Positions 5,596-21,706 of a DNA stretch of 64,000 bases are shown here, one piece after another; the first letter of the stretch is position 1, and every line of letters begins with the position of its first letter. The position numbers were made by a program, and so were the translations under genes. The notes beneath the pieces are model-generated. The model did not search any database. It saw only the letters and a program-made list of their open reading frames with translations, and was not told the origin of the DNA. The stretch is from an uncultured archaeon (GTDB lineage Archaea > Aenigmatarchaeota > Aenigmatarchaeia > CG10238-14 > SCSR01): assembly GCA_964512235.1 (NCBI GenBank), contig CAZEGD010000003.1, positions 101 through 64,100 of the forward strand, given 5' to 3'.

Positions 5596-6231
5596 TTAGC
5601 CACGTCCCGCAGCACGGAGCATCTTATCTTCTTTGGGCGTCCTAATTAGCCACCACAGACCAAATGCAGTTAATACAATCAAAGCAAGGACAACAATATC
5701 CTGCGCAGAAAGCTCCAAGCTAGGTAAAATATCGGTTGAAATACCACCGACGCTTGGAAATAGTTCAGGGAACATTCCAAAGCCACCACTACTTGCAAAC
5801 AGAGCTACACCCACTAATAAAACTATGATGAGAGCTACCTTGGCAGCTCTTGGAAGTTTCGTGTTTTCATCTATTCCTGAAAATATATCTATTCCAACCA
5901 TCTTTGCTAGGATGTATATTATCATCCCTGCAGCTATTAGTGTAGTTAATATTATTGCTGTCTGACCGAACATCGTTGCAAAGAAGTTCGTTAGAGTAAA
6001 TCCAAGAGGTGTATATGCCATCAAGAACATAGCCGCTGCAAGCGAGAATACCAAGTTAATTGCTCTGGCTAGCCTAGCTTCCTTTAGCGCTGAAGCATTA
6101 AAAGGATCTCCAAATAACTTAAGCTTTGATAGTAACCCATAAAACAATGCAAACAGAATTATGAAAGGTAAATAGAATTCAAAAACACCAAACTCAGTAG
6201 CGAGTCCGACCAAATCTCCAATCGATGCCAT
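5596..6231 (-). CDS. Paralogous polytopic membrane protein, member 1 (subgroup A)
   Basis: N-terminus FGVFEFYLPFIILFALFYGLLSKLKLFGD is shared with members 2 and 3. 5-6 TM segments. Confidence 0.7.
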   Translation of the reverse strand: MASIGDLVGLATEFGVFEFYLPFIILFALFYGLLSKLKLFGDPFNASALKEARLARAINLVFSLAAAMFLMAYTPLGFTLTNFFATMFGQTAIILTTLIAAGMIIYILAKMVGIDIFSGIDENTKLPRAAKVALIIVLLVGVALFASSGGFGMFPELFPSVGGISTDILPSLELSAQDIVVLALIVLTAFGLWWLIRTPKEDKMLRAAGRG

Positions 6232-6303
6232 GTCATTCTCCTTAACTAATTATTCGTGATTTAAGTTTAAAAAGCTTTTTTCTCCCCACTCAACTCTTAA
6301 ATT

Positions 6304-6843
6304 CTATTTAGTCAAAAATACCAGCAATCCCACACTTCCCAGCATCGCTCCGAAAGTGACGGCTACACCTATCCACTCATCGCTACCTCCCCCCAGAGAT
6401 ATACCCTGCGGCAAGAATATGCCTACAATCCCGCTGGTGATGAGCACAACAACACCTATCAGCATGCCAAATATCAGTATTACCGCCCATATCCTTCCAC
6501 CTTTGAATTTATCAGCTAAAGTCTTTGGCAGGTCTGGCGGCATGAACAAGCCGGATACTATCAATCCGAGCATTACGACGAGAGTTGCTATCATACCATG
6601 CGTGAAAAACGTAGCAAGCTGCGTCTCTATATTCACACCCGCTATAATCGGGTATGCCCATACCATGAAAGCCGCTGCAATCGATATGACAGCATTGACT
6701 GTGACATTCCTGTCCGGGTCTCCAAATATCTTGCTCTTCCTGAGCGACCCGTAAAATATTGCAGCAGTGAGGATAAATGGCAGTATGAACTGGAAGAATC
6801 CCAGGTCTCTCATCTTCTGTATTGTCAGTTCCATTGGGTTCAT
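6304..6843 (-). CDS. Paralogous polytopic membrane protein, member 2 (subgroup A)
   Basis: LGFFQFILPFILTAAIFYGSLRKSKIFGD. The TM layout matches member 1. Confidence 0.7.
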   Translation of the reverse strand: MNPMELTIQKMRDLGFFQFILPFILTAAIFYGSLRKSKIFGDPDRNVTVNAVISIAAAFMVWAYPIIAGVNIETQLATFFTHGMIATLVVMLGLIVSGLFMPPDLPKTLADKFKGGRIWAVILIFGMLIGVVVLITSGIVGIFLPQGISLGGGSDEWIGVAVTFGAMLGSVGLLVFLTK

Positions 6844-6847
6844 TTAA

Positions 6848-7390
6848 TCACTCAGACTTCAAAGTCGTGGCAGCCGCGATTATCAAGACTACAATAAATA
6901 TTAACATTCCTCCGATAAGAGTGATTATGTCCGGGTTTATCACTGGACTGGTGGGTGCTCCAGACCCGCCAATAGCTCCAAGTATAGTAGGCAGGAAGCC
7001 GCTAATTACAGCCACAGTCAGGGCTATGGCAACCCCGACGTAGAGCATTGTCCTACTATGGGAGAACTTCTCTTTGAGCATACCCGCGAGATCGGGGTAG
7101 AAAAAACCCGATATTAAAAATGCGAAAAATATTACAAATATAAACAACATAAGCTGCATGAACATAGTCGTCATCGAAAACGTCAATGACGTCCCAGTTA
7201 TTATGGGAAAGCTGAATATGAGGAATGCACCGACAAACGCAACCAACCCGTTGATTGCGGATGACTCTCCCAACAGCTTAGTCTTCTTCAACAATGCAAA
7301 AAACAATGGCAATGCCAAAAGGAACAGCAAAAAGTCATAGAATCCAATATTCAGCAATTCATTTATCACTGTCTCGAACGGGCTTGCCAT
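6848..7390 (-). CDS. Paralogous polytopic membrane protein, member 3 (subgroup A)
   Basis: IGFYDFLLFLLALPLFFALLKKTKLLGE. The gene lies 4 nt upstream of member 2. Confidence 0.7.
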   Translation of the reverse strand: MASPFETVINELLNIGFYDFLLFLLALPLFFALLKKTKLLGESSAINGLVAFVGAFLIFSFPIITGTSLTFSMTTMFMQLMLFIFVIFFAFLISGFFYPDLAGMLKEKFSHSRTMLYVGVAIALTVAVISGFLPTILGAIGGSGAPTSPVINPDIITLIGGMLIFIVVLIIAAATTLKSE

Positions 7391-7467
7391 TTATTAAAAC
7401 ACCTAAATTAGATTTCGTTTGCCAGAAATTTAAGTTTAAAGATTGGGCACATAATTTTATGTTTTTT

Positions 7468-7935
7468 CTATTCGCTCTCCACCAGTTCTATTTCTCTTCT
7501 CAATCTCTCTATATTTTTATATAGAGCCCTTTTCTTATTTTTATTACCCTCAGTTCTTAACTTCTCAAATTCTTTATCACGTCTTTCCATGAGTCTTTTA
7601 AGCCTCCTTCCTTTAGAACCAGTCTCGAAGTAGATATCCCTGCCTCTGTTGATTGTCCAGAGTATAACACCACCTACAAATAATAGAAGGAATGCTGCAA
7701 CCGCTGTCATGCTGCCCAGCTGTATCATCCACTGCGAAACCATTGGAAATATGTCCGTGGATGCGAGGAAGAGCACCATGGCAAGCGAAATCACAATGTT
7801 GATTTTCTTGTTTTTGAAAATCCCCATCGCCGTTAAAATGCCCCAAAGCATTACGAAAATTACTACGAAAGGAATGAAGAATGTGTTAATGAGTTCCCAA
7901 GGTGCCAGTTCATATAATAGGTCTAGGATTGCCAT
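7468..7935 (-). CDS. Paralogous membrane protein, member 4 (short, with a charged coiled-coil tail)
   Basis: INTFFIPFVVIFVMLWGILTAMGIFKNKK, then 2-3 TM segments and the K/R/E-rich tail RRLKRLMERRDKEFEKLRTEG... Confidence 0.65.
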   Translation of the reverse strand: MAILDLLYELAPWELINTFFIPFVVIFVMLWGILTAMGIFKNKKINIVISLAMVLFLASTDIFPMVSQWMIQLGSMTAVAAFLLLFVGGVILWTINRGRDIYFETGSKGRRLKRLMERRDKEFEKLRTEGNKNKKRALYKNIERLRREIELVESE

Positions 7936-7988
7936 AAATACCTAATAATACTTTGGATTTGGGATTAAAAATTTGATTAGAAACTGAA

Positions 7989-8708
7989 TTATGGCTCAAA
8001 CCCTGATTTTCTCATATCTCTAGAAAGTTCCCTCTCTTTCTTTGAGAGATTTCCGTATTCCTTAACCAAACTTTCAACTTTAGATGGAACTTTACCACCT
8101 ACTTTCAATTTCGAAGGCCAGTCTTTAGTATCTGAAGTATTTAGCGCATGTTTAACATCATCACCATAGACAACATCATTTACATCTTTTCCAATTTGGT
8201 TAAGTATACTTGTTTTTCTCCTTGAAATGCCAGTTAAGTCACCTCTAATGCTAGAAACTTCTTTTGCCATTCCACCAAAATTGCCATACAACCTGAAGCT
8301 CGTGCCATATACCCATAGTATGACACCGATGATGAACAGTATACCAAATCCTATTAGGCCTATGAAGGCGCCAAACGCATAGAATATGTTCACTATATAA
8401 GTCAGTATGCCAGAAGGCAGAAGCAGGAATGCAAAGCAAAACGCAATCGTACCATGTAATTTGTTACTTCCTCTTCTGAATATTCTCAATTCTTTGAGTA
8501 TGCCGTAAATAACTACAAAGGCTGTAAAGAAAGGAAAGATAACATAATAGAGTACATTTGGTATTCTAAGCCAGTCTTCAGACATGCCCGGAAAAACCCA
8601 AGTTGCAAGTGCCTCTGGATCCCACAGAGACTCTAGGTAATTCTGCGCTAGACCTACCGTAGGTAACGTCAATAAGATTGCAAAAATTACAGCTGCTACT
8701 CGTCTCAT
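7989..8708 (-). CDS. Paralogous membrane protein, member 5 (subgroup B: signal peptide plus cytoplasmic tail)
   Basis: Signal peptide ending TVGLAQ, core YYVIFPFFTAFVVIYGILKELRIFRR, and a charged C-terminal tail. Confidence 0.65.
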   Translation of the reverse strand: MRRVAAVIFAILLTLPTVGLAQNYLESLWDPEALATWVFPGMSEDWLRIPNVLYYVIFPFFTAFVVIYGILKELRIFRRGSNKLHGTIAFCFAFLLLPSGILTYIVNIFYAFGAFIGLIGFGILFIIGVILWVYGTSFRLYGNFGGMAKEVSSIRGDLTGISRRKTSILNQIGKDVNDVVYGDDVKHALNTSDTKDWPSKLKVGGKVPSKVESLVKEYGNLSKKERELSRDMRKSGFEP

Positions 8709-8770
8709 TTAATACGCCTATTAATTATTTAGTTAGAAGGAATTTAAATTTGAATGGTTATGTTGAGGAT

Positions 8771-10003
8771 ATGGGTATTGAAACAAAGAATAAAGAAAAC
8801 ACGAATGAACTATATTATAAAAATCTTCTGAATTTCTATCTAAATGTAAAATCAAGACCAAAAACAGATTGGCGTTTTATTTTTGGGCAACATCCATATC
8901 TTGGCTATTCTTCTGATACCATACCTAAACTTGCTATCTTTGACTTTGACGGTATATTTGAAAAGCAGGATAAAGACGAACTATATAAACTAGTTCTTTC
9001 CAAGATGGTTAAAACTAATAGAAAACTTCAAAATAGAGTAAATGACTTAGTAAAATGGATTAAAATTTTACAGACACCAGAAGGCTATAAACCAGCTAAA
9101 GACAAAATTGTAGAAATATTTAAAAGCTGTAACCTCACTAGGTCAGAATATGATGAATCCAATGATGAAGCTGCAAAAGAATTTATTAAAAACTCTTTAG
9201 TCAACGGCGCAAAAACATGCATAAAAAGACTCAAATATAAAATGGGTTATTTACCTGCTATAATCTCAGCCGGTTTTAGGCCAGCTGAAATAAAGGTTTG
9301 TGAATATTTAGGAATATCAAACACAAATGTAACTGCAACCCAGTTTTTATTCGATGGTGATGAATTCTATGGAATCGATTTCGTATTAGGATCAAGAAGG
9401 ATGGATGCAAAAAGTAACTTATTGAAGAGAAAACTTGGTAGTAGATATGGATGCTACTTCATATTCGACAATGACCCAGTCCTAAACGCATCTATTCTTA
9501 AATCTGGATTAAACCCGTCAGTTATTATCGGAGATTATCCTAGAGAACAATTAATGCAACTTGACTTTGATGTGTTTACGTGCTGCCCAGAAGCTAGAGA
9601 CAATTTGTTAAATATAATACCATCAATGAACAGATTCGAGTATGGATGGACTGTTGCAAATATATTACCTAAGAAGATTATTAACAAATTTTTTAGTCTA
9701 TCAACCAAACAAAGAAAATTATTTAATCAATTAGAGGCTTTAGATGTAGCAAAGAGTGAATTTTCATCTTTGAGAGACAGGCTCGTTTCTTTATCGCTCC
9801 AAATTTTGAATATAAAAGAAAAGTTTCATTTGATTACAGAAGAGTCGGAGATTAGAGACGATTTGTGGAGATTACTAGTAATCAAAAAAGATGCAAAAAA
9901 GAAAATCAATGATATTTTCGAATTCTTTGAAACTAATGTACCAGAGACAGAATCTTTAGAAGAGTTATTGTATGATGTACAAAAAGAGTATAAACACAAT
10001 TAA
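8771..10003 (+). CDS. HAD-superfamily-like protein with C-terminal coiled coil (hypothetical)
   Basis: I trimmed the start to the ATG at 8771 (MGIETKNK) because the track start overlaps the neighbouring gene. LAIFDFDGIF resembles HAD motif I (DxDx), IISAGF resembles motif II, and FIFDNDPV resembles motif IV. The gene is very AT-rich. Confidence 0.5.
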   Translation: MGIETKNKENTNELYYKNLLNFYLNVKSRPKTDWRFIFGQHPYLGYSSDTIPKLAIFDFDGIFEKQDKDELYKLVLSKMVKTNRKLQNRVNDLVKWIKILQTPEGYKPAKDKIVEIFKSCNLTRSEYDESNDEAAKEFIKNSLVNGAKTCIKRLKYKMGYLPAIISAGFRPAEIKVCEYLGISNTNVTATQFLFDGDEFYGIDFVLGSRRMDAKSNLLKRKLGSRYGCYFIFDNDPVLNASILKSGLNPSVIIGDYPREQLMQLDFDVFTCCPEARDNLLNIIPSMNRFEYGWTVANILPKKIINKFFSLSTKQRKLFNQLEALDVAKSEFSSLRDRLVSLSLQILNIKEKFHLITEESEIRDDLWRLLVIKKDAKKKINDIFEFFETNVPETESLEELLYDVQKEYKHN

Positions 10004-10006
10004 ATC

Positions 10007-10813
10007 TTAAGCAATTCCCCTATTCTCTCTTTGTCTTTTAATAAAAGACTTGAGGTCAAATGAATACTCTCTTATTGTTTTCTCAGTTGCTTCATCTGGC
10101 TGCACTTCACCAGGCATATTTTTCAAGTTATCTTTTATTCTATAAGTTGTATTTAAGAATTCTCTATTTTCTTCAGTCAGATTACCTTCAAAAAGTTCTA
10201 TTTGTAAGACAGTTCCAACACTCTTGGATATAGAATCCATTACATCTCTCATAGTATCAACTTGTCTTTTCAAAAAGCTCTTTGATGTAAGTTCTTTGTG
10301 CAAAGCTTCTAGCTCTTCTAGTTCTTTTACATGTTTTGGTTTAACTTCTGCACTTTTATTTTCAATACTAGCACTAGACAAGGGGTTTGATGCTTCTTCT
10401 ACTTTTTTATTTAATATATCGGCTTCTGTTATTAAAAATTCTTTTTTAATATATGACCTTAATTCTCGAAATTTTCGAGGAATTTTAGTTAAGATATCTA
10501 TACATTCACTGTAAGTTTCATCATCAATTTTATTGCAATGTATTTCGACCCTTCTATATTCTCTTCTTTTTTCAACTCCTGGGATAATTTTTAAATCACT
10601 AAGAATACCTAAAAAGGTATAGTAATTTTTTCTTAATTTTTGGATCCACACATTCTGTATATGGAAAAGGTACGCCACACTATCATAAGGAGGAGCATTC
10701 GAATTTGTCTGCTCCAAATTTTGGAATAATTCATTTTCAAACTCTTGATATCTTTTTAAGGTACCTATTATTTTCGATTTTAATTCTAGATTTGCTATAT
10801 CTGTATCAATCAT
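10007..10813 (-). CDS. Hypothetical coiled-coil protein
   Basis: 268-aa ORF, AT-rich, with heptad-like K/E-rich segments. No recognisable domain. Confidence 0.5.
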   Translation of the reverse strand: MIDTDIANLELKSKIIGTLKRYQEFENELFQNLEQTNSNAPPYDSVAYLFHIQNVWIQKLRKNYYTFLGILSDLKIIPGVEKRREYRRVEIHCNKIDDETYSECIDILTKIPRKFRELRSYIKKEFLITEADILNKKVEEASNPLSSASIENKSAEVKPKHVKELEELEALHKELTSKSFLKRQVDTMRDVMDSISKSVGTVLQIELFEGNLTEENREFLNTTYRIKDNLKNMPGEVQPDEATEKTIREYSFDLKSFIKRQRENRGIA

Positions 10814-10976
10814 CTTAATCTAATTAGGAGATACAAAACTAACCTTTAAATACCTTTAACCTATCTAGAGTAAAAAAAAATTATGAACCCCAACCTATCT
10901 AATAAATGCATGTGTAAGAAGCTTACAACTCAACCAAAATACATTTTTATATACTTTTAAAACGAAATCTAATTTA

Positions 10977-11861
10977 ATGGTTAACATGAACAAAAAAGGG
11001 TTGATTCTATCATTCGTACTTTCTTTCATGCTTTTAACTAATGTAGCTCTTGCTCAGTATGAGTGGTTTAGCGACCTTGGTGAATTATTTGGAGCGGGTG
11101 GTGGTGGAGCGCCACCAGATGCGTTGATAGGTTTTTTAAACTATTTTGGAGTTCCAGAAGACATCCTTGTTGGTTGGGGAGGGATATTTTACTACATAAT
11201 CATACCATTGGCTACGTTTGCGCTAGTTCTGAAAGCCATACTCGTTGAGGAAATAATGGTAAACACGATGAAATTAGAAACATTCAGAGATTGGAGGGGG
11301 TGGCTGTTTATACTTTTAATTCTGGGGTTCTTGCTCCCAACTGGTCTTGTGGGAATGACTGCAATGTGGCTTTATGCCAGTGCTGGTATACTGGTCATAT
11401 ACGGGTTTGGGGCATTGCTGCTCATGGCTGTTATCCAAAAATTAACTTATATGAGAGGGGGGAGGGATTATTATACTTTGGTAATAGGAGTTATAGTTGC
11501 TGCACTTGTAGCAGCATTTATACCTAACGTAGGAATCGTATTGGCCGGATTAGCCATCTTTATGTCAATCGTTGGTTATAGAAGAACTCGTAGAATTGCT
11601 GTAATGGGTCCTTTGGGGGATAAAAAACAGAAAGAATTAGACTACGCTGATAATATCATGGGCAATATAAAGAGGCATTTGAAGGGAAAGAAAGAATTGA
11701 AGACATATCGTAACAAAGAGCCATTTCTTAGGGATGCTCAGAACCTAGCTAGCGATCTTATAAATGAAAGAATTAGCCTCACCAATGCAAGAAAAGAATT
11801 CAAAGCATTAAAGACAAGGATAGACGATGCAGATGCTGCAGCTAAACAGAAAAAACCTTAA
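10977..11861 (+). CDS. Paralogous membrane protein, member 6 (subgroup B)
   Basis: Signal peptide ending NVALAQ, core YYIIIPLATFALVLKAILVEEIMVN, 4 TM segments, and a basic coiled-coil tail. Confidence 0.7.
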   Translation: MVNMNKKGLILSFVLSFMLLTNVALAQYEWFSDLGELFGAGGGGAPPDALIGFLNYFGVPEDILVGWGGIFYYIIIPLATFALVLKAILVEEIMVNTMKLETFRDWRGWLFILLILGFLLPTGLVGMTAMWLYASAGILVIYGFGALLLMAVIQKLTYMRGGRDYYTLVIGVIVAALVAAFIPNVGIVLAGLAIFMSIVGYRRTRRIAVMGPLGDKKQKELDYADNIMGNIKRHLKGKKELKTYRNKEPFLRDAQNLASDLINERISLTNARKEFKALKTRIDDADAAAKQKKP

Positions 11862-11974
11862 TATTTAATTTCCTTAACTTCTTCTTCTCAGATTCTATGT
11901 TAATTCCCTTAGGACTTTTCCTCAATATTTTTTAACGATTTATGTCTTAAATCCAAAATTTAATCTAGGTTGAT

Positions 11975-12826
11975 ATGGACAGGAAAATCTTGATTCTCTC
12001 ATTTATCACTATCTATCTTCTTTTAGTCCCAGTTGTTCTAGCCCAAATTCCAGAATTTGAATTTGGCGTTGGAATCCCTAGTGACTTTGCAAACCTCTTA
12101 GAAAGTTTTGGAATCCCTAGAGGACTCAGCGTCGATTACGGACTCCTTTTAATCTACATCATAGTCCCGATGATAACCTTTATTATAGTTTTGAAAGCCA
12201 TACTCGTCGACCAGATAATGGTGAACTTATCTCCGAGTTTCAGTGGTGCAATGGGTTGGATATTCTGCATTCTAGTAATCATCTTCCTGCTGCCGACAGG
12301 GCTGATAGGTGCGGTAGCCATGATGCTCTATGCTTTATCAGGCATAGTCGTAATATACGGGTTTGGGTTTTTGATACTGATGGAAACATTTAATTATTTT
12401 ACAAGAGGTAAGCCATGGTGGTGGAAATTTATCATATTCGGCATCATAGGCTTTTTCATAGCAACAGTCTTCCTCCCTGGCATAGGTGTCTTAGTAGGAC
12501 TCATTATCGTGGCATACTCAATCTTTAGGGCTTGGAGGTCAAGGGCAAACATAAAGGCTGCATTGCTGGGACTAAAACCACTCGAGGGAGAGCTAAGAAA
12601 GGGAAAATTTGAAAAAGCTGTGAGAGATATTACTCGTGAGATAGGAAAATTACCATCCAATATGCGAGCAGACGCTGAACTAAAATATATAGAATCTCTC
12701 GAGGATGCAGGCGCAAAATACATATCTAACGCCATTGACGAAAATGCATGGAAAAAACAAATCAATAGTATCAAAGAAAGAATAAAAGCACAGAAAGAAG
12801 CCCATAAAAGAATAGAAAAGAGTTAA
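11975..12826 (+). CDS. Paralogous membrane protein, member 7 (subgroup B)
   Basis: Signal peptide ending PVVLAQ, core IYIIVPMITFIIVLKAILVDQIMVN, colinear with member 6. Confidence 0.7.
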   Translation: MDRKILILSFITIYLLLVPVVLAQIPEFEFGVGIPSDFANLLESFGIPRGLSVDYGLLLIYIIVPMITFIIVLKAILVDQIMVNLSPSFSGAMGWIFCILVIIFLLPTGLIGAVAMMLYALSGIVVIYGFGFLILMETFNYFTRGKPWWWKFIIFGIIGFFIATVFLPGIGVLVGLIIVAYSIFRAWRSRANIKAALLGLKPLEGELRKGKFEKAVRDITREIGKLPSNMRADAELKYIESLEDAGAKYISNAIDENAWKKQINSIKERIKAQKEAHKRIEKS

Positions 12827-12838
12827 TCTTTCAATAGT

Positions 12839-13543
12839 TTATCCTTCCCTTTTCATCCTCTGCACCAGATCGCTCAGCGCGCGCACGCTCTCTATCAGCG
12901 CAGGCAAAGTCTCCTTGAAAGCCTTCTCCAACCCAGACAATCGTATGTGTATGTCCTGCAAGCTCGTCCCCACACCTTCAACTTTCGTTATCACCTGGTT
13001 CTGCTCGCCGCTGCGGCCTTGTATTACCGTATTCAGCTGGTGCTTTATCTCTTCCATTCTCTTCTCAAGTTCTGTATAGCGGATGGCAAACTCATTCATC
13101 TGGTGCTGCACATCAGTCATTCGCTCGTTTATGGCATAATCAACATAGTCCTCAGTAGGATAGCTCTGGTAGTATTCTGATGGCAGGGACGTCTCGGGTA
13201 CTACTGGCTGCGACGGTTTTATCTGCTCCATCGTTGGCAGCATCGATGACTGCTGCGCTGGCGGGAATGATGGCTGCCTTGCATTCTGCTGCATGCCTTC
13301 CGCGGGCGTGAATGACGGCTTTTCAGCAGTATATGTTGTGACAGGCTCTCCCCTTACACCGCCCTTTAGCGTCTGCGTCAACGCCGAGTCTATCTCCTCC
13401 GGTGCAAATCCCTCTCTCCTCAACGCATCTATGACATCCGTTTCAGAGAAGCCTCGCGACATAAGTTGCTGCACTCTGTTAGTCGGTGCATATCCTTTGC
13501 CCTTTATTTTCTCCTCTTTGCCACTAAGAAAAGGTATCTTCAT
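12839..13543 (-). CDS. Coiled-coil protein with an N-terminal UBA-like helical module and a Q/P-rich linker
   Basis: N-terminus GFSETDVIDALRREGFAPEEIDSAL, a low-complexity P/Q/S linker, and a C-terminal heptad-rich region. Confidence 0.6.
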   Translation of the reverse strand: MKIPFLSGKEEKIKGKGYAPTNRVQQLMSRGFSETDVIDALRREGFAPEEIDSALTQTLKGGVRGEPVTTYTAEKPSFTPAEGMQQNARQPSFPPAQQSSMLPTMEQIKPSQPVVPETSLPSEYYQSYPTEDYVDYAINERMTDVQHQMNEFAIRYTELEKRMEEIKHQLNTVIQGRSGEQNQVITKVEGVGTSLQDIHIRLSGLEKAFKETLPALIESVRALSDLVQRMKREG

Positions 13544-13615: not shown

Positions 13616-14050
13616 TTAAACCCTTTTCCTCGTCTTCGTCATTCTGTCTTCAAGCGCGCGCTCAAGTTCGCCCTTTGTTATGAACTCCGAAGTTATGGGA
13701 TTGATAATATCTATAAATGTCTCAAGCTGCTTGACTTCATTTTTCGTTGCAGTCTTGTCAAGTCTGTTATTTATCCTAGCCACCTCATTCTCCATCGTTA
13801 TTATCCTGTCCGACACGTCTACAATCTTGTTAGATATCTTCTCCAGTTCCAGCTTCAGTTCATTCAGCTGCATGAGCACAGTCTCATCCAGGCTTCTCAT
13901 TCCATTCTCCATTCTTTCAATCTTCTGCTCCATGAAATGTATTCGTCGGGCGTTCTGGTTTATCCTCTGTATCAGCTCGGACATTACAGAATTGCTATCG
14001 CCTTTCCGCGGCTGCGACTGGAACGATTTTTGGATTTCGTCTGACGGCAT
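13616..14050 (-). CDS. Small coiled-coil protein
   Basis: 144 aa, nearly all heptad-like (IERMENGMRSLDETVLMQLNELKLELEKISNKI...). It is transcribed divergently from the pilus ATPase. Confidence 0.6.
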   Translation of the reverse strand: MPSDEIQKSFQSQPRKGDSNSVMSELIQRINQNARRIHFMEQKIERMENGMRSLDETVLMQLNELKLELEKISNKIVDVSDRIITMENEVARINNRLDKTATKNEVKQLETFIDIINPITSEFITKGELERALEDRMTKTRKRV

Positions 14051-14139
14051 GGCAATCCTCTGGATAATGATGACTACTATAAAGAATTTGTGTCGCCGTA
14101 GATAAATTTAATTAGGTATATGCAAGATGGTTGGAAAAA

Positions 14140-16380
14140 ATGGCAGTTGACTATAAAATTGAAGACGGTACAGCGAGAATAGACGCACGCAACTGGGTGA
14201 TAGAGCCAAGCATTGAGAATTCTGAGGCATGCATGGCCGTTGTCATTGACATATTGCAAGAATCGAAAAATATAGAGCGCATAGTTCTCGCGGAAGTGAG
14301 GGATGTGGAATACGACTTTGAGCAGACGCAATTGCTTGCAAGCATCGCTCGGGCACACAACAAAATATTGAATGAAGAAAAGCTGATGAGCATAGAAAAG
14401 CTCGGCCCGAGGGAGTGCTCGGTGCTGCTGCCCGCCAGGTTCAAGGAGCTGCAGTTCTTGATTCTGGAAGTCCTGCGCAAGGACCCGATAGGTGCCTACG
14501 TCAAAGTGAAGATGATGATAAACAAGGCACAGGAGAAGATGAAAAAGATGAAGATGAAACAGTGCTTCAAGCAGTACATAGATGAAGTGCTGATTCCGAT
14601 GAAAAATATACTGGAGTCTACAGAGATGATAAAGGCTGCACAGCCGTATCTACGCATCTTCAAATTCGGTGACCGCCGGATCTACAGGGAGCTGTTCAAG
14701 CCTGTGATCAGGCCAACATTCATGCTCACTCGCTACATGATCGTCCCACCAAAGGGAGGGAGGCTCATGGAAAAGTACAACATAGCAGCCAATACGACTG
14801 TAGAGATATTCAGCGTGCCAGGCAGGGTGAGGCACAGCTATTTCATAACCCCTCCAGAGTTCAGGTTGAGCGAAGAGAAGTATGCCGTGCTGGACATGGC
14901 GCGCCGGTATCTAGCAGAGCACAGGCCGAGCGAGACGGAGTTCGCAGACCCGGAGCGTGCGCGCGAGGTGTTTATGAACATAAGCCGCGACCTCATCGCT
15001 GACGTGTCAAGGTCGATGAATGTGATGCTTACTGTGAAAGAGATAGAAGAGCTCGCCGTGGTGCTGTCACGCTATACTGCAGGATTTGGTGTGCTTGAGC
15101 TGTTGCTTAGCGACGATAAGATACAGGATTTGTACATAAATTCGCCCATCGGGTTGACACCGATATATGTCTATCATTCAGATTTCGAGGAATGCATAAC
15201 AAACCTCATACCTACAAGGGAGGATGCAGAAGCTTGGGCGACCCGATTCAGGCTGTATTCTGGCAGGCCATTGGACGAAGCCAACCCAGTGCTTGACACT
15301 GAGCTGACAGTGCCTGGAGGGCGCGCACGTGTCGCAGCCATCACCCGCACACTAAGTCCTGAAGGACTGGCATTCACCCTACGCCGTCACCGCGAGAGGC
15401 CATGGACATTCCCACTTTTCATACAGAACAGGTTTATCGATCCGCTGTATGCAGGATTGATGAGTTTCATAGTCGATGGCGGCCGTGCAATATTGATAGC
15501 AGGCGGACGTAGCTCGGGGAAGACAAGCTTGCTAGGTGCGATGATGCTGGAGATATTGCGGAAGTTCAGGTTCATTGTGCAGGAAGATACTTTAGAGCTA
15601 CCTATAGTGTACATGCGAAAGCTAGGCTACAATGTCGAGCGGCTGAAGTCACGCTCCGTGATTACACAAATAGAGACTGAGCTGTCTGCTGATGAAGCTC
15701 TAAGGACAGCGCTCAGATTAGGAGATTCAGTCCTGATTCTGGGCGAAGTGCGCAGCGTAGAGGGCAAAGCATTGTTCGAAGCTATGCGCATAGGCGCGCT
15801 TGCAAATGTGGTCGCCGGTACAATACATGGTGAGTCTGCTTACGGAGTCTACGACCGTGTGGTGAATGATCTAGGAGTGCCGTCTACGAGCTTTAAAGCC
15901 ATAGATCTGATTACGATATGCAACATGCTGCACAGCCCGGACGGTCTGCATCGCTTCCGAAGAGTCGTTGCTTTGACAGAAGTGCGGAAGCACTGGAAGG
16001 ATGATCCTGGAGCAGAAGCCGGGTTTGTGAATCTCATGGAATATTCGGCAAAGGAAGACAGGATGAAGCCTACGGATACTTTGACTGACGGAGAGTCTGA
16101 GGTGCTTAATGAAATTGCAAAGCGCGTGCGTGAATGGCATGGTAGATGGGACGTAATGTGGGACAACATAATGCTGCGGACGAAGATAAAAGAGGCGATG
16201 GTGAAGTACTCTGAAAAATTCAATAGGCCAGATATGCTGGAGGCAGACTGGGTGCTTGACAGCAATGAAATGTTCCATTTGATATCCGACAAAGTGAAGA
16301 AGGAAGTCGGTGGATTGGATAGTAAGCTCATCTACAGCCGATGGGAAGATTGGTTCAAGAATAGGATAAAACAGAAGTAG
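14140..16380 (+). CDS. Type IV pilus/archaellum-family secretion ATPase (ArlI/FlaI-PilB/VirB11 superfamily) with a long N-terminal extension
   Basis: Walker A AGGRSSGKTS, Asp box IVQEDTLEL, Walker B ILGEVRSVEG, and His box GTIHGES. I placed the start at ATG 14140; the track uses an in-frame TTG at 14131. Confidence 0.9.
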   Translation: MAVDYKIEDGTARIDARNWVIEPSIENSEACMAVVIDILQESKNIERIVLAEVRDVEYDFEQTQLLASIARAHNKILNEEKLMSIEKLGPRECSVLLPARFKELQFLILEVLRKDPIGAYVKVKMMINKAQEKMKKMKMKQCFKQYIDEVLIPMKNILESTEMIKAAQPYLRIFKFGDRRIYRELFKPVIRPTFMLTRYMIVPPKGGRLMEKYNIAANTTVEIFSVPGRVRHSYFITPPEFRLSEEKYAVLDMARRYLAEHRPSETEFADPERAREVFMNISRDLIADVSRSMNVMLTVKEIEELAVVLSRYTAGFGVLELLLSDDKIQDLYINSPIGLTPIYVYHSDFEECITNLIPTREDAEAWATRFRLYSGRPLDEANPVLDTELTVPGGRARVAAITRTLSPEGLAFTLRRHRERPWTFPLFIQNRFIDPLYAGLMSFIVDGGRAILIAGGRSSGKTSLLGAMMLEILRKFRFIVQEDTLELPIVYMRKLGYNVERLKSRSVITQIETELSADEALRTALRLGDSVLILGEVRSVEGKALFEAMRIGALANVVAGTIHGESAYGVYDRVVNDLGVPSTSFKAIDLITICNMLHSPDGLHRFRRVVALTEVRKHWKDDPGAEAGFVNLMEYSAKEDRMKPTDTLTDGESEVLNEIAKRVREWHGRWDVMWDNIMLRTKIKEAMVKYSEKFNRPDMLEADWVLDSNEMFHLISDKVKKEVGGLDSKLIYSRWEDWFKNRIKQK

Positions 16381-16425: not shown

Positions 16426-16713
16426 ATGATTATGACTGGCAGAAAGGGTGCAATACCAATACCCTATATAATCGCCATAATTTTCGGGATAGTTGTAATT
16501 GCGATAATTGGCTACTGGTTCTTTACGACCGCCGGCGATATTGGCAGCGCTAGTCAACAAGCAGATTGTGAAACAGCATTGTTTGAATTCTGCATAAGCT
16601 GGATTAGAGAAGGAGAAGCTAATAAACCTTTTGATCATAAAGTAGTAGAAGATTGTGGACCTCTTGATATAGGTGTACCTACGTTTGCCCAATGCACAAG
16701 TGTCTATACCTAA
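16426..16713 (+). CDS. Class III signal peptide (type IV pilin-like) protein, 4 Cys
   Basis: N-terminus MIMTGRKG|AIPIPYIIAIIFGIVVIAIIGYWFF: a short basic leader, K-G, then about 22 hydrophobic residues. Confidence 0.8.
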   Translation: MIMTGRKGAIPIPYIIAIIFGIVVIAIIGYWFFTTAGDIGSASQQADCETALFEFCISWIREGEANKPFDHKVVEDCGPLDIGVPTFAQCTSVYT

Positions 16714-16789
16714 TAATTTAGGCATATCATAAACTCCTTTCAAACCAATTCTTAATACGGACAAAAGCCAAAACTATTTTTAGATATTG

Positions 16790-18742
16790 ATGGTCAGAAG
16801 AGTCTCTAGGGAATACGATGAATTCTTGCGCGGCAAAGTGGAAATCAAGCCCACTCTGTATAGCCAAGCGTGCAAATTTGCAGAGAAAATCCTGCCTATC
16901 CAACCGGGAAAGGATTTGAATAAAAGATACCAGGAAGCGATAAATTTCTCGCACTTGAATGTCACTCCAAAAGGCGCGTTTTCCCTTGCAATTCTAGCCC
17001 TGTTATTAGTCGCAATAATTCCAATAGTTTTAGCTATTCTCCTCGGTATGTTCACAATCGGCCTTGTGGCGATGGCAATGATTTTTGCCGGCGTCACATT
17101 CTACTACCTGTATGACTATCCTCTGCACCATTCCGTGATTTTCCGTATAAAGGCAAGCTCAGAGATGGTCCTAGCTATAGTCTATATGACAATAGCGATG
17201 CGCATATCTCCGAATTTGGAGAATGCAGTCAAGTTTGCAGCCCGCAGTCTTAGCGGACCACTCGCTACAGATCTAAAGCAACTCATATGGGACGTCTATA
17301 TGAGGAAATACGACTCTATGTCTGAAGCTTTGGACGCTTTCATAACCAAGTGGAAGGTCGAAAACAGGGAATTCACAGAAGCCATATACTTGATAAAGAA
17401 CTCTTCTATAGGAACCACTGCAAGAAGGGAGAGCGTGCTAGATGAGGCAGTCTCAGTCGTGCTTGAGGGTACAAAGGAGAGGATGAAGCACTACGCGCAG
17501 GATCTGAGAACACCAGTCACAATATTGAATGCGATGGGAATACTGTTGCCTCTCATAGGGCTTGTGTTTTTGCCGCTTGTAGGACTCTTTATGTCAGAGA
17601 TATTCCAGCCAGTCTTTATAATAGTGGGCTACAATGTGATACTTCCACTGTCCGTGTATTGGATGATGAAGACCACTCTTGAGAAGAGACCATATAGCTT
17701 CCACCAGCCAGACCTTTCAAGGCACCCGAAGTTCAGAAAAAAGAAGATTGACACAACACTCATCATCTCAATGCTAATTCCTCTACCCACTACGGTCTTT
17801 GGGTTCTACTATTTTATGACTATAAAAGAGATTTTCAGCAATACTCTGCTATACTGTTCGCTGATAACGCTGTCGGGAATAGTTGGTGGCATAGTATTCT
17901 ATTGCATAATGTCTACTTGGAAGAAACTGAAAATAAGGCAGGAGATTATTGAAATAGAGCAAGGATTTACTGAAGCACTGTTCCAGATTGGCAAGCAACT
18001 GCAGCGTGGTATACCTATAGAGAAAGCAATCGAAAGGTTTGTAATGAATATGAAGGACTTGAAGATTGCAAGGATGTTCGAAATGGTTCTTTACAACATA
18101 AAGACTTTTGGAATGACATTCGAGCAGGCGGTCTTCGATGAGGAAAGGGGTGCAATAAGACAATATCCGTCCAAGACCGTGGATGCCACAATGCGCGCAA
18201 TAGTCGAAATCTCCAAGAGAGGCATGAAAGTGGTCTCGAATGCGATGATATCAATATCGAGATATATGAAAGACGTGCATGTCGTGGAAGAGGACCTTAG
18301 AGACATGCTGTCCGAGACTACGTCCACTATGAACATACAAGCCCTCTTCCTAGCACCGTTGACATCTGGGATAGTGATATCGATTTCCGCAATAATGATG
18401 CAGATGCTGCTGTCGTTCAAGGGAATGCTAGAAAGCATACAGGACCAGCTGTTCGCCTCCGGCCCATCTGGGTTCATGAGCGGCGGGATACTGACGTCAG
18501 TCCTCAATATAAACAAGATGATACCTGTGCACATATTCCAGCTCATAGTGGGCATATACCTGATAGAAGTGGTAGCGATGCTCGCGATGTTTCTCAGCAA
18601 GATACAATACGGCGAAGAGAATCTGATAAGGACCTATAACATAGGCAAGATGCTCTTATTGGCTACAGTTATCTATATGCTTATCGCGTTTTCGCTCTAT
18701 TCGGTATTCACATCAATCATGCCGGTTTTAATCATGCAGTAA
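16790..18742 (+). CDS. Pilus/archaellum assembly membrane platform (ArlJ/FlaJ-TadC, T2SS-F-like)
   Basis: About 650-aa polytopic membrane protein with two cytoplasmic helical domains separated by TM clusters. It sits directly after the ATPase, which is the standard ATPase+platform pairing. Confidence 0.8.
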   Translation: MVRRVSREYDEFLRGKVEIKPTLYSQACKFAEKILPIQPGKDLNKRYQEAINFSHLNVTPKGAFSLAILALLLVAIIPIVLAILLGMFTIGLVAMAMIFAGVTFYYLYDYPLHHSVIFRIKASSEMVLAIVYMTIAMRISPNLENAVKFAARSLSGPLATDLKQLIWDVYMRKYDSMSEALDAFITKWKVENREFTEAIYLIKNSSIGTTARRESVLDEAVSVVLEGTKERMKHYAQDLRTPVTILNAMGILLPLIGLVFLPLVGLFMSEIFQPVFIIVGYNVILPLSVYWMMKTTLEKRPYSFHQPDLSRHPKFRKKKIDTTLIISMLIPLPTTVFGFYYFMTIKEIFSNTLLYCSLITLSGIVGGIVFYCIMSTWKKLKIRQEIIEIEQGFTEALFQIGKQLQRGIPIEKAIERFVMNMKDLKIARMFEMVLYNIKTFGMTFEQAVFDEERGAIRQYPSKTVDATMRAIVEISKRGMKVVSNAMISISRYMKDVHVVEEDLRDMLSETTSTMNIQALFLAPLTSGIVISISAIMMQMLLSFKGMLESIQDQLFASGPSGFMSGGILTSVLNINKMIPVHIFQLIVGIYLIEVVAMLAMFLSKIQYGEENLIRTYNIGKMLLLATVIYMLIAFSLYSVFTSIMPVLIMQ

Positions 18743-18767
18743 ATAAGATTTAGATAGGGGAATAACG

Positions 18768-18905
18768 ATGAATGGACGCAAAAGCGAAATGAACATGAAG
18801 TCGATATGGTTTCTGGTCCTGTTAATTCTACTTATCTTTCTGATAATTTTATTTTATACACTCGGCAATGAAATAATTGAGGTACTTACCTCCACCTTCG
18901 CTTAA
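18768..18905 (+). CDS. Possible 45-aa single-TM peptide (weak prepilin-like leader MNGRKS...)
   Basis: Not in the ORF track (below its size cutoff). ATG is preceded by GGGG. The peptide is MNGRKSEMNMKSIWFLVLLILLIFLIILFYTLGNEIIEVLTSTFA. Its stop lies 2 nt before the next pilin-like gene. Confidence 0.3.
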   Translation: MNGRKSEMNMKSIWFLVLLILLIFLIILFYTLGNEIIEVLTSTFA

Positions 18906-18907
18906 AA

Positions 18908-19135
18908 ATGGGGAATGATATGAAAAAAAGAAGAAAGGGAATTGCAATAGAGACTATAGTGTATTTGGTGCTTGCGATCGTGGGACTAATTGTTCTATGG
19001 GTTTTCCTTTCAGGTCTGGCCCCAGTAATCAAAACAACCGTAGAGGAGATAGTGAAGGGAATAGGCTGCAAGATATGCGAAATATTTGGGGTTGCCGGCT
19101 GGGTTCTTAGCGCATTTTGCAGGAACTGCCCATAA
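18908..19135 (+). CDS. Class III signal peptide (pilin-like) protein, 4 Cys
   Basis: MGNDMKKRRKG|IAIETIVYLVLAIVGLIVLWVFL. C-terminus CKICE...FCRNCP. Confidence 0.75.
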   Translation: MGNDMKKRRKGIAIETIVYLVLAIVGLIVLWVFLSGLAPVIKTTVEEIVKGIGCKICEIFGVAGWVLSAFCRNCP

Positions 19136-19161
19136 TAAGTAAAAGTTTCTTTGGACAAGAT

Positions 19162-19205
19162 AATCGACAGTTTTAATTCTAGGACTCGAAATAATAATTA
19201 TGGAA
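19162..19205 (+). repeat. Duplicated promoter/5' region, copy 1
   Basis: aatcgacagttttaattctaggactcgaaataataattatgga recurs at 19921-19964 with one mismatch. It includes the TTTTAAT TATA-like box and the ATG. Confidence 0.85.
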
Positions 19206-19865
19206 ATAAGAATGTCTGGGAGTAAAGGGGGAGGGATACCGACCAGGTGGATTGTCTTGGGATTTTTAGGTGTACTCGTCATATTGGGCATTTATGTAGT
19301 CTACGCGAAAGGTCATGAAATGTCTGGAGGTCTATTCGGTTTTTGGGACGACCTTTTTGGAGGAGGAGGACAAACGGGAGGAAAGACGGAGTTCGAGGCT
19401 GCCATAGAATGTGCTTATTACAGGTGCAAAGAGAACTGCCCGTATGCAATAACTAAAGCCGGAGCTGTCGGTGATTTTAATTGCCTAGATTATTGCAAAG
19501 AAGAATGGACTGATGACAATAGACGAATTTGTGATGGACATCCTATCGAAATACAGTTAAGTAGTGGTGAAACTATAGAGGCCAGTTGGTGGCGCCAGAT
19601 TACAGGGGGCTCCAACAATGCACTATCTCGATCGGACTGTATAGTGGACAGAATATATAGGTATAGCAATCTCAACCTAATTTTTCCAATAGACTCCTCA
19701 GAATGCAACATAGAAAGTGCTGGTGTAGATGGAATAATCTACAGCAGTTGCAAGTTGACATCAGATGGTACTTTTTACATATGGAGTGAAAAACACTATT
19801 GGCCAAATGAATGTACAGTTGGTGCTACTTGTATAGCTACCATAATTTGCGACAGGCAACCGTGA
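19200..19865 (+). CDS. Class III signal peptide protein, Cys-rich (12 Cys), paralog A
   Basis: MEIRMSGSKGGG|IPTRWIVLGFLGVLVILGIYVVY. It shares EFEAAIECAYYRCKENCPY with the next gene. Confidence 0.75.
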   Translation: MEIRMSGSKGGGIPTRWIVLGFLGVLVILGIYVVYAKGHEMSGGLFGFWDDLFGGGGQTGGKTEFEAAIECAYYRCKENCPYAITKAGAVGDFNCLDYCKEEWTDDNRRICDGHPIEIQLSSGETIEASWWRQITGGSNNALSRSDCIVDRIYRYSNLNLIFPIDSSECNIESAGVDGIIYSSCKLTSDGTFYIWSEKHYWPNECTVGATCIATIICDRQP

Positions 19866-19920
19866 AATATTTTGAGAATATAAATTTAGTCGATTTAGAC
19901 TCAATGATATGATAATTAAA

Positions 19921-19964
19921 AATCGACAGTTTTAATTCTAGAACTCGAAATAATAATTATGGAT
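19921..19964 (+). repeat. Duplicated promoter/5' region, copy 2
   Basis: See 19162-19205. The copies are 759 bp apart, which equals the tandem gene duplication unit. Confidence 0.85.
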
Positions 19965-20636
19965 ATAGAAACACCTAGAGGTAAAGGTGTCGCAATGAGA
20001 ACTATAGTTTTAGTCGCAATCGGCGTCGGCGGCTTGTTATTCGGTTTTATTATGCTTACAGGAATCGGAGATGCTAGGGAAAATATAATTGACATCCTCC
20101 TTGGTTTAGGTAGCTCTGCTAAAGGACCATCAAAATTGGAAGTGGCAATAGAATGTGCTTATTACAGATGTAAAGAGGGATGTCCACATGGTGCTGAGAA
20201 TGTTGAAATTATCGATGGTTTTGAGTGTTTAAAATTCTGCGACGAAGCAGTAGTCAATAGTGTTGATAGCAATGGAGACAAGAAAATATGCGGCTCCGAG
20301 TCCAGAGATTATCCGGTAACAATCTCGATAGAGGCAAGTTATGTGCATACTAACACGATTGATGATGCTGGCTCCGAGCTGAGCTCGATCGTAGAATTTA
20401 ACGAAGAAACCGTAGGCTGTGAAAACTTCAGGCCGTCATATGCATATCTATATGTAACTAGGTCAATGATAGTCGACGGAAAAACAGAGATCTGTCCTAC
20501 ACGCAATATGGCCTATGGTGGATACAACTGCTACGATAATGTTAAAGTAGCCGCAGGAGATTACTCTATTTGGGTACATAACATCTATGTTCTTGGCGTA
20601 TACGTCGGTACATCGCCTATAGTCTGCATGGGATAG
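19959..20636 (+). CDS. Class III signal peptide protein, Cys-rich (10 Cys), paralog B
   Basis: MDIETPRGKG|VAMRTIVLVAIGVGGLLFGFIML, followed by KLEVAIECAYYRCKEGCPH. Confidence 0.75.
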   Translation: MDIETPRGKGVAMRTIVLVAIGVGGLLFGFIMLTGIGDARENIIDILLGLGSSAKGPSKLEVAIECAYYRCKEGCPHGAENVEIIDGFECLKFCDEAVVNSVDSNGDKKICGSESRDYPVTISIEASYVHTNTIDDAGSELSSIVEFNEETVGCENFRPSYAYLYVTRSMIVDGKTEICPTRNMAYGGYNCYDNVKVAAGDYSIWVHNIYVLGVYVGTSPIVCMG

Positions 20637-20737
20637 TTCCATAAAAGTTTCTACAACTTTAGTGGAAATTAATAATTTTATTCAAGACTAACCTTTAAAA
20701 AGAAGGAATTGAAAATAAGATATAGGTGATAGGTAGA

Positions 20738-21061
20738 ATGATGAAAAAAGGAATAGCAGTTCCTTACATTATTGCCCTTATTCTGGGAATAGTAGTTGTA
20801 GCTCTGCTAGGTTACTGGTTCTTCATACTAGGTGGAACTTTCACCGGTAGAGCTTCAATCACAGAGTGCCAGACCAAATTGAGTACATACTGTGCTGCAT
20901 TCGCAGCTTCAGGCTATGACACAGCAGCGTTCGATCCCTTTACTAGTAGCACTTGCCCAGCAAGCGGTACAGTAGACGCCCCTGAATGTTGCTCACACTA
21001 TAGCTCTCTAATGACTGGTGCTAGCTGGACAGCCACTTGCACGAATTTAATAGGGCAGTAA
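20738..21061 (+). CDS. Class III signal peptide (pilin-like) protein, 6 Cys; paralog of 16426
   Basis: MMKKG|IAVPYIIALILGIVVVALLGYWFF. GGTGA lies 7 nt upstream of ATG 20738; the track starts at an in-frame GTG at 20726. Confidence 0.8.
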   Translation: MMKKGIAVPYIIALILGIVVVALLGYWFFILGGTFTGRASITECQTKLSTYCAAFAASGYDTAAFDPFTSSTCPASGTVDAPECCSHYSSLMTGASWTATCTNLIGQ

Positions 21062-21075
21062 AATAAAGTGGAAAT

Positions 21076-21282
21076 ATGAAAGGTAGTATACCAGTTCCTT
21101 ATTTAATAGCCATAATACTAGCTGTAGTCGTTATAGTTGTGCTTGTCTACATGTATCTTTCTGAAAGCGGATTATTCTCTCAAGTAATTGATGAGAAATA
21201 TTGCCAGGCAAAGTGTATGGAATGCAAAGCGACAGGGGGTTCAATGCCACCTGAGTGCATTGATTATCCTTGTGACCTGTAG
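21076..21282 (+). CDS. Class III signal peptide (pilin-like) mini-protein, 5 Cys
   Basis: MKG|SIPVPYLIAIILAVVVIVVLVYMYL. The mature part is only about 40 aa and contains CQAKCMECK...ECIDYPC. Confidence 0.75.
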   Translation: MKGSIPVPYLIAIILAVVVIVVLVYMYLSESGLFSQVIDEKYCQAKCMECKATGGSMPPECIDYPCDL

Positions 21283-21332
21283 CTGTTGACAACCAGACTA
21301 ACATCTAAATAAAATAAAAAGAAATATAGTTT

Positions 21333-21650
21333 ATGAAGGTCAAGCCAGCTACTACGGATTCTAAAGGCGTAGCAGTTCACACAATCGTAATAGTTATGAT
21401 ATTCGGGATTATGATGCTAATCCTTCTACTGGTATTTTCAGAATATCTTGGAATACAGAACTGCGAGGCTGCAAGGATGGCCTGCTCGACTGCTAGGGCG
21501 TCACACTGCTTCAGTTGGTGGAAAAACGACAATAGCTTTAGCTCTGGCGAGCCTGATTGGGAGAACATAAACGACTGCGACGATACCGGATTGGTGAGTT
21601 GTGACAAACCCGACAGGTCAGAATGCTTAGACTTGATATTCAGCGATTAA
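21333..21650 (+). CDS. Class III signal peptide (pilin-like) protein, 6 Cys
   Basis: MKVKPATTDSKG|VAVHTIVIVMIFGIMMLILLLVF. Confidence 0.7.
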   Translation: MKVKPATTDSKGVAVHTIVIVMIFGIMMLILLLVFSEYLGIQNCEAARMACSTARASHCFSWWKNDNSFSSGEPDWENINDCDDTGLVSCDKPDRSECLDLIFSD

Positions 21651-21706
21651 ATTTCTAGGTTTTGAAATGAAAAACAATTAATTAAACCAAAGAGTAATTT
21701 TTAATT

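Follow-up and report, generated by a model that had tools for sequence, protein, structure and literature searches.

A paralogous membrane protein family beside a type IV filament locus of an uncultured aenigmatarchaeon, a candidate pilus-associated scaffold

In small-genome symbiotic archaea, type IV pili are believed to play a central part in attachment to hosts and in interaction with them, and to our knowledge the only parts recognised in the machines of such archaea are an ATPase, a platform protein and pilins. A stretch of 64,000 nucleotides from an uncultured archaeon of the Aenigmatarchaeota (contig CAZEGD010000003.1 of assembly GCA_964512235.1, positions 101 to 64,100; the whole stretch is referred to here as the window) carries a type IV filament locus and, beside it, seven genes for small membrane proteins, M1 to M7, which a first-pass annotation had described as a paralogous family flanking the pilus genes. 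Which question this raises is plain: are these proteins related, and do they belong to the filament machine? All seven open reading frames (ORFs) were present exactly as annotated (Table 1), and when the 376 ORFs of the window were all searched with hidden Markov models (HMMs) of the family, M1 to M7 were recovered and no other member. The filament locus itself proved real, as judged by the matches of its ATPase and by class III signal peptides; the family does not flank it, all seven genes lying on one side of the pilus genes. The analysis described below makes the family a good candidate for a new membrane scaffold associated with the pilus, a role that is as yet unproven.

Homology of the seven proteins and extent of the superfamily

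In pairwise comparison the seven proteins formed a chain, not a clique, in which M1 was linked to M2 (1e-13), M2 to M3 (2e-15 to 5e-22, BLASTP) and M6 to M7 (2e-40), with further links between M4 and M5 (2e-8), M5 and M7 (2e-6) and M1 and M4 (1e-5). Since these values refer to membrane proteins in a tiny database, family profiles were built from public protein collections, all of them seeded with the window's own proteins, which is a caveat on the homology tests. Profile-profile comparison with hhalign connected the M4 family with the M5 family (99.5 %, E 1.5e-22, 146 columns) and the M5 family with the M6/7 family (98.6 %, E 1e-15, 143 columns). The M1-3 family was connected with the M4 family (94.1 %) over 42 columns comprising transmembrane segment 1 (TM1), the loop behind it and the start of TM2, with the M5 family over 47 columns of the same TM1-loop-TM2 region (92.6 %), and with a profile of 193 M4-7 sequences (96.1 %, E 2.9e-9, score 64.7). 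No signal was obtained when the M1-3 family was compared directly with the M6/7 family by hhalign; the relationship of these two is transitive, and the M5 family is the hub of the homology network. Searches with the HMMs gave matching results: M1 matched both the M1-3 HMM (4e-45) and the broad M4-7 HMM (3e-6), M2 matched the latter at 6e-9, and 78 of 137 independent M4-7-type proteins matched the M1-3 HMM (best 1.4e-11).

Generic hydrophobic composition, the alternative that the first-pass annotation had itself named, failed as an explanation of these similarities. Against real scores of 52-53, controls that preserve hydrophobicity reached 13-18 when profiles were reversed and at most 26 in 100 local column shuffles; in the comparison with the 193-sequence profile the maximum of the controls was 31.8 against 64.7, and reversed profiles scored 13-19 across both tests, so that the controls amounted to at most half of the real score. 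Therefore the similarity is not one of generic hydrophobicity, and on the strength of these profile comparisons the seven proteins are judged to be one superfamily of true paralogues, as had been proposed. The superfamily is fast-evolving. A possible eighth member, a protein of 160 aa encoded at 55111-55593, was rejected (soluble, highly charged and helical; hhalign 0.4 %); it had matched the broad family HMM weakly, through tail-like composition only.

When 1.84 billion representatives were searched exhaustively with a profile, 555 clusters (50 % identity) fell into the M4-M7 superfamily at E ≤ 1e-3 and 425 at E ≤ 1e-10, far more than a word-indexed search had suggested; the matches listed in the exhaustive search were all 108-308 aa long, and some members were named from metagenome-assembled genomes (MAGs) of Candidatus Aenigmarchaeota and of Candidatus Micrarchaeota RBG_16_49_10.

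In line with the earlier failure to assign the family to a named domain, scans of Pfam, NCBIfam, PHROGs and PADLOC with the seven proteins and 116 family members yielded nothing significant, and a Foldseek search of the PDB with AlphaFold2 (AF2) models of M2 and M5 returned only noise (E > 1, TM-score ≤ 0.25). More specifically, no match to the T2SSF/TadC/FlaJ platform domain (PF00482) was found for the seven proteins at E ≤ 1 or for the 116 members at E ≤ 0.1, and resemblance to MotA/ExbB/TolQ stators was absent by PF01618, by PDB fold search and by conserved polar or charged residues in membrane segments. The only recurrent curated lead was DUF2070 (PF09843), to which 10 of 60 M1-3 members and 2 of 56 M4-7 members gave weak matches; the three inspected, P0049 (18.3 bits), P0054 (16.5) and M4 (12.4), all lay under the 30-bit gathering threshold and all placed the start of TM1 at profile positions 35-38, in a common register. 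DUF2070 proteins are predicted archaeal membrane proteins of about 560 aa, three times longer than the family members, and the link to this domain of unknown function would offer no functional insight even if real. Literature searches retrieved no description of the M1-M7 family and nothing useful on DUF2070.

Predicted topology and architecture

Hydrophobic segments and charge counts satisfied the positive-inside rule in all seven proteins, and the AF2 models of M2 (predicted local distance difference test, pLDDT, 77.9; helices 3-13, 16-37, 47-68, 72-100, 116-136 and 155-178) and M5 (pLDDT 82.2; TM3 extending as a single helix 101-176) agreed with the charge-based topology. The superfamily is predicted to share a common core consisting of a short acidic extracellular N-terminal helix, TM1 (usually with a Pro), a short cytoplasmic loop, TM2 and TM3, in which the loop would be basic except in M6/M7 and would end in a conserved Asn that starts TM2. 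To this core M1-3 are predicted to add two further membrane segments, M4-M7 a basic helical cytoplasmic tail of 60-106 aa, and M5-M7 also a cleavable signal peptide. Four architectures could thus be told apart, not the two subgroups of the first-pass annotation: 5 TM without a tail, 3 TM with a tail, a signal peptide with 3 TM and a tail, and a signal peptide with 5 TM and a tail. M1-3, predicted to have their N-terminus outside, indeed lacked a signal peptide and, beyond a very short basic end, a tail (in M1, with its short basic C-terminus, K+R per segment was 0/4/0/3/0/5).

Several features that had been read from the sequence earlier needed adjustment. A helix with a central Pro followed by a basic patch was a general property of the seven, with the exceptions that the Pro of M3 lies 6 residues later than the aligned position and that M6 and M7 have no basic patch after the helix, a K inside the helix being followed there by EE or DQ. 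The signal peptides of M5-M7 look cleavable as described; they most likely end in ...LA and not in LAQ, the conserved Gln being the first mature residue. A21/Q22 was almost invariant among M5-type proteins (n = 43), the Gln was invariant in the M6/7 family, and signal-peptide-like N-termini were found in 151 of 193 family members, 123 of these 151 with AQ. As for the tails of M4-M7, which had been called charged coiled coils, their basic charge was evident (net positive in 91 % of 193 members, median length 77 aa) and strong heptad periodicity was confined to M5 (peak 3.5, power 2.19 against a median of 0.12). The extracellular segment of M5 is acidic and aromatic. Residues conserved across the family alignments were Pro, Gly, Phe, Leu, Trp and Ser together with a single Asn where TM2 begins on the cytoplasmic side, and no conserved charged residue was seen in these alignments inside membrane segments.

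A conserved cassette divergent from the pilus ATPase gene

Thirty related loci were retrieved from metagenomes and two GTDB genomes, about 17 of them with enough flanking sequence, and in all of these ~17 the gene order was pilins <- platform <- ATPase, then, in the opposite direction, cc144 -> cc234 -> M5-class (one to four copies) -> M4 -> M3-like -> M2-like -> M1-like, followed by Dph5 and TRM5. Identity to the window across the loci was 64-71 % for the ATPase, 48-63 % for Dph5, 37-51 % for cc144, and down to 26-35 % for M5-class proteins. M4 was present as a single copy per cassette in all loci. Past M4, the best matches ran M3, M2, M1 at 31-57 % identity in nearly every genome with this stretch; the positional orthologues of M3 were 32-46 % identical, and the M1-like orthologue likewise came last elsewhere. 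Since this order was kept, the paralogues must predate the radiation of the lineage and have been retained individually.

Orthologues of the two soluble genes at the head of the cassette were found in 20 loci each, those of cc144 at 37-51 % identity and those of cc234 at 44-51 % identity, the latter always after cc144 and with a heptad peak of 3.5. A profile search with cc234 gave no Pfam or PDB relative, cc144 gave only generic coiled-coil matches in the PDB (GCN4 fusions), and the comparison of cc144 with cc234 was not significant (42 %). Members of the M1-3 subfamily were, like cc144 and cc234, observed in pilus-linked cassettes only. In the window the cassette is rearranged, with M6 and M7 inverted relative to the ancestral cassette and two genes, p441 and p268, inserted; homologues of these two occurred at the equivalent site in some relatives only (L003, L005, L010, L031/32 and L034), and both are outside the core cassette. 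The M6/7 subfamily is rare (7 relatives in the word-indexed search). In two of the related loci, L013 and L016, the ATPase ORF was 1267 aa long, compared with ~750 aa, and the next platform-like match was ~400 aa, which points to a fusion of genes, an additional domain, or an artefact of assembly or reading frame.

The cassette and the ATPase operon diverge from a putative bidirectional promoter region, with a gap between ATPase and cc144 of 37-102 bp across the related loci. A core of the form TTAAATTTATC-N9-12-CAAATTCTTTAT (the second box also written CAAATTCTTTATT) was conserved in this gap: 22 of 42 aligned columns were at least 90 % identical in 14 loci, compared with 3 of 35 in the Dph5|TRM5 control region, and a 13-nt block was at least 90 % identical across 14 divergent loci. 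The two AT-rich boxes are possibly the interlocked TATA elements of divergent promoters, or a regulator site. The motif did not recur above chance elsewhere in the window. A TATA-like TTTTTATATA lies ~35 nt upstream of M6.

The ATPase matched Pfam T2SSE (4e-11) and, in the PDB, afGspE (2oap, 3.5e-24) as well as CpaF and FlaI; in NCBIfam it matched the TadA-type (2.4e-34) and FlaI (8.8e-34) models, both under the family cut-offs. A polytopic protein, of 651 aa in the window, followed it in every locus examined. No match of this protein to Pfam T2SSF or to the PDB was found, even with a five-sequence profile, so that we infer its identity from position. The pilin-like ORFs, among which paralogy was observed, carry a short basic leader ending in [KR]-G and then a hydrophobic stretch. 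The pilin cluster is closed by a gene for a 1139-aa protein (23290-26709) with a C-terminal InlB B-repeat-like domain (Flg_new_2, 7.9e-7), a candidate pilus-associated adhesin. Loci of 'system 2' have been described as having an ATPase with a long N-terminal extension and, besides many pilins, a single platform gene and a large adhesin-like protein (10.64898/2026.04.22.720090), and the pilus locus of the window fits this architecture.

Table 1. Positions and predicted properties of the seven family genes, the neighbouring cassette genes and the filament locus in the window.
Feature	Position	Strand	Length	Properties
M1	5596-6231	-	211 aa	M1-3 subfamily; last gene of the cassette
M2	6304-6843	-	179 aa	M1-3 subfamily; predicted N-terminal helix and 5 TM
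M3	6848-7390	-	180 aa	M1-3 subfamily; predicted 5 TM; first of the M3-M2-M1 trio after M4
M4	7468-7935	-	155 aa	Predicted N-out, 3 TM, no signal peptide; 60-aa basic helical tail, net +8
M5	7989-8708	-	239 aa	Predicted signal peptide (…GLA/Q, slash marking the end), 3 TM; basic heptad-periodic 106-aa tail, net +6
p441	8678-10003	+	441 aa	Weak HAD-IB phosphatase-like region (NCBIfam TIGR01488, 3.6e-6, under cut-off)
p268	10007-10813	-	268 aa	No match
M6	10977-11861	+	294 aa	Predicted signal peptide, 5 TM; basic tail ~95 aa, net +12
M7	11975-12826	+	283 aa	M6 paralogue with the predicted architecture of M6; basic tail ~95 aa, net +8
cc234	12839-13543	-		Predicted soluble; small N-terminal helical domain, P/Q-rich linker, C-terminal heptad coiled coil
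cc144	13616-14050	-		Predicted soluble coiled coil; first cassette gene, divergent from ATPase
Putative bidirectional promoter region, cc144/ATPase	14051-14139	.		Conserved core at 14079-14111
Type IV filament ATPase	14131-16380	+	749 aa	N-terminal extension ~290 aa
Pilin-like ORFs (~10, small)	16426-23293	+		Class III signal peptides; range spans the platform-like gene
Platform-like (TadC/FlaJ-like) polytopic protein	16787-18742	+	651 aa	Identity from position only

Members of the superfamily were also located in loci of other make-up. In L037 and L041 they adjoined ATPase and platform genes of the same type in a different arrangement; L037 (1-3770) is a short contig on which a platform-like fragment and an ATPase fragment enclose an Alba gene and three members of the family. 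Tandem arrays of up to four members were found in L039 (labelled Micrarchaeota), in L040 and L044 (an Aenigmarchaeota cluster) and in L042, and a single copy in L043. SMC and ScpA lay immediately upstream of the four-gene arrays of L040 (2245-5458), L042 (3668-6885) and L044 (487-3700), an adjacency that may be lineage synteny or a hint that the basic tails have a role connected with the chromosome or with division. In L036 (2858-3232), L039 (3488-3880), L040 (9748-10131) and L044 (7889-8272), a small gene for a CBS-domain protein of 124-130 aa lay at the array end or no more than ~1.5 kb from it. An ancient four-subunit set common to the phyla was considered and found no support, the best matches not being position-specific; orthology is positional within lineages and not between phyla, and the arrays therefore seem to have expanded independently.

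Elsewhere in the window, an archaeal signal recognition particle RNA was found, together with tRNA matches at 34933-35050, 48026-48117, 56087-56173 and 1331-1416 whose lengths (86-118 nt) are consistent with intron-containing archaeal tRNAs. The last of these lies inside a 222-aa ORF (797-1465), which is therefore probably not a gene.

A putative membrane scaffold and its alternatives

The explanation that we tentatively prefer, at somewhat under an even chance, is that the family builds a hetero-oligomeric scaffold in the membrane, with basic helices forming a layer on its cytoplasmic side, and that this scaffold works with cc144, cc234, the pilus ATPase and the platform protein in this lineage. 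According to this proposal, cc144, cc234, the M5-class genes, M4, M3, M2 and M1 would be expressed together from a promoter region shared with the ATPase/platform/pilin operon, and the separately retained paralogues would assemble into a hetero-oligomeric patch or ring round the platform protein. The basic helices continuing TM3 could reach ~9-11 nm into the cytoplasm and might form, with cc144 and cc234, a collar to hold the ATPase hexamer or keep it in position, for which the N-terminal extension of the ATPase (~290 aa) would be the docking site; such a collar would be a functional analogue, not a homologue, of ArlX/ArlCDE in archaella or of PilMNO/GspLM in bacteria. A bolder version, which we consider rather doubtful, sees in the nine-gene cassette a new kind of type IV filament motor scaffold or stator in DPANN-type archaea, namely a hetero-oligomeric ring in the membrane whose cytoplasmic part would be a coiled-coil cage. 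Such a device would have no relationship to ArlX/ArlCDE or PilMNO and would have been recruited from membrane-anchored coiled-coil proteins of a family that extends across DPANN.

The structural or scaffold role in the envelope that the first-pass annotation had suggested is made plausible for this lineage by the fixed cassette and by the promoter region shared with the ATPase, and several observations weigh against tying it to the pilus. The housekeeping genes Dph5 and TRM5, on the opposite side of the cassette, show just as much synteny; the whole region is therefore stable in the lineage and adjacency is weak evidence. Within ~10 kb of the family members of L039, L040, L042, L043 and L044 no T2SSE ATPase was found, and the distant arrays adjoin SMC-ScpA, GatB/GatD or the small CBS gene instead; since these arrays are remote from pilus ATPases, the ancestral role of the superfamily is not pilus-specific. 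The tails of M4-M7 were rejected as relatives of cc144 or cc234 (8 % and 4 %), their heptad periodicity is weaker in M4 and M6 than in M5 and absent from M7, and the promoter motif did not recur upstream of other cassette genes. Furthermore, the 651-aa protein, unconfirmed as it is, could be a platform protein that has diverged very far or another kind of protein, and each protein-protein contact in the scaffold proposal, from oligomerisation to contact with the pilus machine, is one that we infer. A rival that is nearly as likely is a pilus-independent envelope or membrane-organising complex, such as a layer of basic coiled-coil tails, anchored in the membrane, for the organisation of cell shape, division, chromosome or host contact; its adjacency to the pilus genes would be inherited synteny. 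The equal synteny of Dph5 and TRM5, the arrays remote from pilus ATPases, the breadth of the superfamily in Aenigmarchaeota- and Micrarchaeota-labelled MAGs and the seemingly independent expansion of arrays in different phyla are in line with it. What speaks for the pilus-associated scaffold and against such a complex is the strong conservation of the promoter region shared with the ATPase, the linkage to ATPase and platform genes kept in the two rearranged loci L037 and L041, and the restriction of cc144 and cc234 to pilus-linked cassettes.

Other explanations are considerably weaker. A multi-subunit channel or transporter for small solutes or ions, built of small subunits with 3-5 TM, is improbable: tandem small polytopic subunits do resemble some multi-subunit transporters, and weak scattered Pfam matches (e.g. 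ABC2_membrane_3, DUF350 and MurJ) were obtained, but the membrane segments contain no conserved charged or polar residue, the invariant Asn being interfacial, and the cassette has no transporter ATPase or substrate-binding partner. In keeping with this, no well-characterised transporter family, nor any other family, reached significance in the curated scans, and the PDB Foldseek hits stayed at E > 1. It is very unlikely that M1-3 serve the pilus machine as non-canonical pilin-like substrates, processed at a Gly that was invariant in 60 of 60 members (consensus [KRLQ]-[DEN]-[ILF]-G-[FAV]-[FY]-[QED]-F). Behind this Gly comes a hydrophobic helix rich in aromatic residues and with a polar residue at +3, yet the Gly is preceded by I/L/F and, one position earlier, by D/E/N and not by K/R; the leader is acidic (median 1 K+R and 2 D+E in the 60 members), and the adjoining pilin genes carry true class III signal peptides. 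Moreover, M1-3 were rejected as prepilins on the grounds that the positive-inside rule puts their N-terminus outside, opposite to that of prepilins, and that charge topology and the AF2 model give them 5 TM in place of a single N-terminal helix with an extracellular globular domain. The first-pass annotation had called the resemblance of the G-[FV]-[FY]-[EQD]-F start to a prepilin junction superficial, and leader charge and orientation bear this out. Closest to being refuted is a function as holin- or viroporin-like, or defence-related, membrane-disrupting proteins. M4 has the topology of a class I holin (N-out, 3 TM, basic C-terminal tail), an architecture that weak Pfam matches to Vpu and SieB also reflect, but no PHROGs or PADLOC match was found, no phage or defence genes lie nearby among the scanned region products, and the context is a housekeeping one, with gene order conserved over deep divergence and seven paralogues retained.

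How would the proposed scaffold compare with known filament machines? ArlX (FlaX) and ArlC/D/E, coiled-coil proteins that are membrane-anchored and/or soluble, form a cytoplasmic scaffold around the archaellum motor, and their genes lie next to those of a FlaI-type ATPase and a platform protein. The basic helical cytoplasmic tails of M4-M7 and the soluble coiled coils cc144 and cc234, encoded next to the ATPase gene, are reminiscent of these; unlike ArlX, which has one N-terminal TM and is a single gene, the family has 3-5 TM and seven paralogues. No family member matched the archaellum accessory models in Pfam or NCBIfam, no match to ArlH, ArlF or ArlG was seen among the region products scanned, and the locus encodes pilins. 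In bacteria, PilM/PilN/PilO and GspL/GspM are likewise accessory membrane proteins encoded with the machine, where they link the ATPase to platform and envelope, but those are bitopic and carry their coiled-coil and ferredoxin-like domains in the periplasm, whereas the proteins described here are polytopic with cytoplasmic tails; Pfam and NCBIfam matches to PilN, PilO, T2SSL and T2SSM were absent, as were structural matches. Lineage-specific membrane and coiled-coil accessory proteins are common in archaeal type IV pilus loci, arCOG07564 in the halobacterial subclade 4F being one example (PMC4858521, which also supports the general statement on archaellum motor scaffold proteins), and DPANN pilus loci are rich in unrecognisable components (PMC6393860). 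The loci of PMC4858521 and of 'system 2' (10.64898/2026.04.22.720090) resemble the present one in their uncharacterised membrane and coiled-coil genes linked to an extended ATPase, a single platform gene and many pilins, and differ from it, going by their description, in the set of seven paralogues, its fixed order and its spread beyond pilus loci. The family is new to curated databases; its kind, an accessory component of an archaeal type IV filament locus, is already known.

With its subfamilies, predicted topology and conserved operon, the family defines an unannotated superfamily of at least 555 clusters that would merit a database entry. In one lineage, the conserved cis-regulatory core and the operon provide a testable hypothesis for a missing structural module of the pilus, and a broader function in the envelope is suggested by the tandem arrays of other DPANN phyla. 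If the pilus-independent envelope complex turned out to be the true explanation, the family would still be a conserved part of the 'dark matter' of the DPANN cell envelope.

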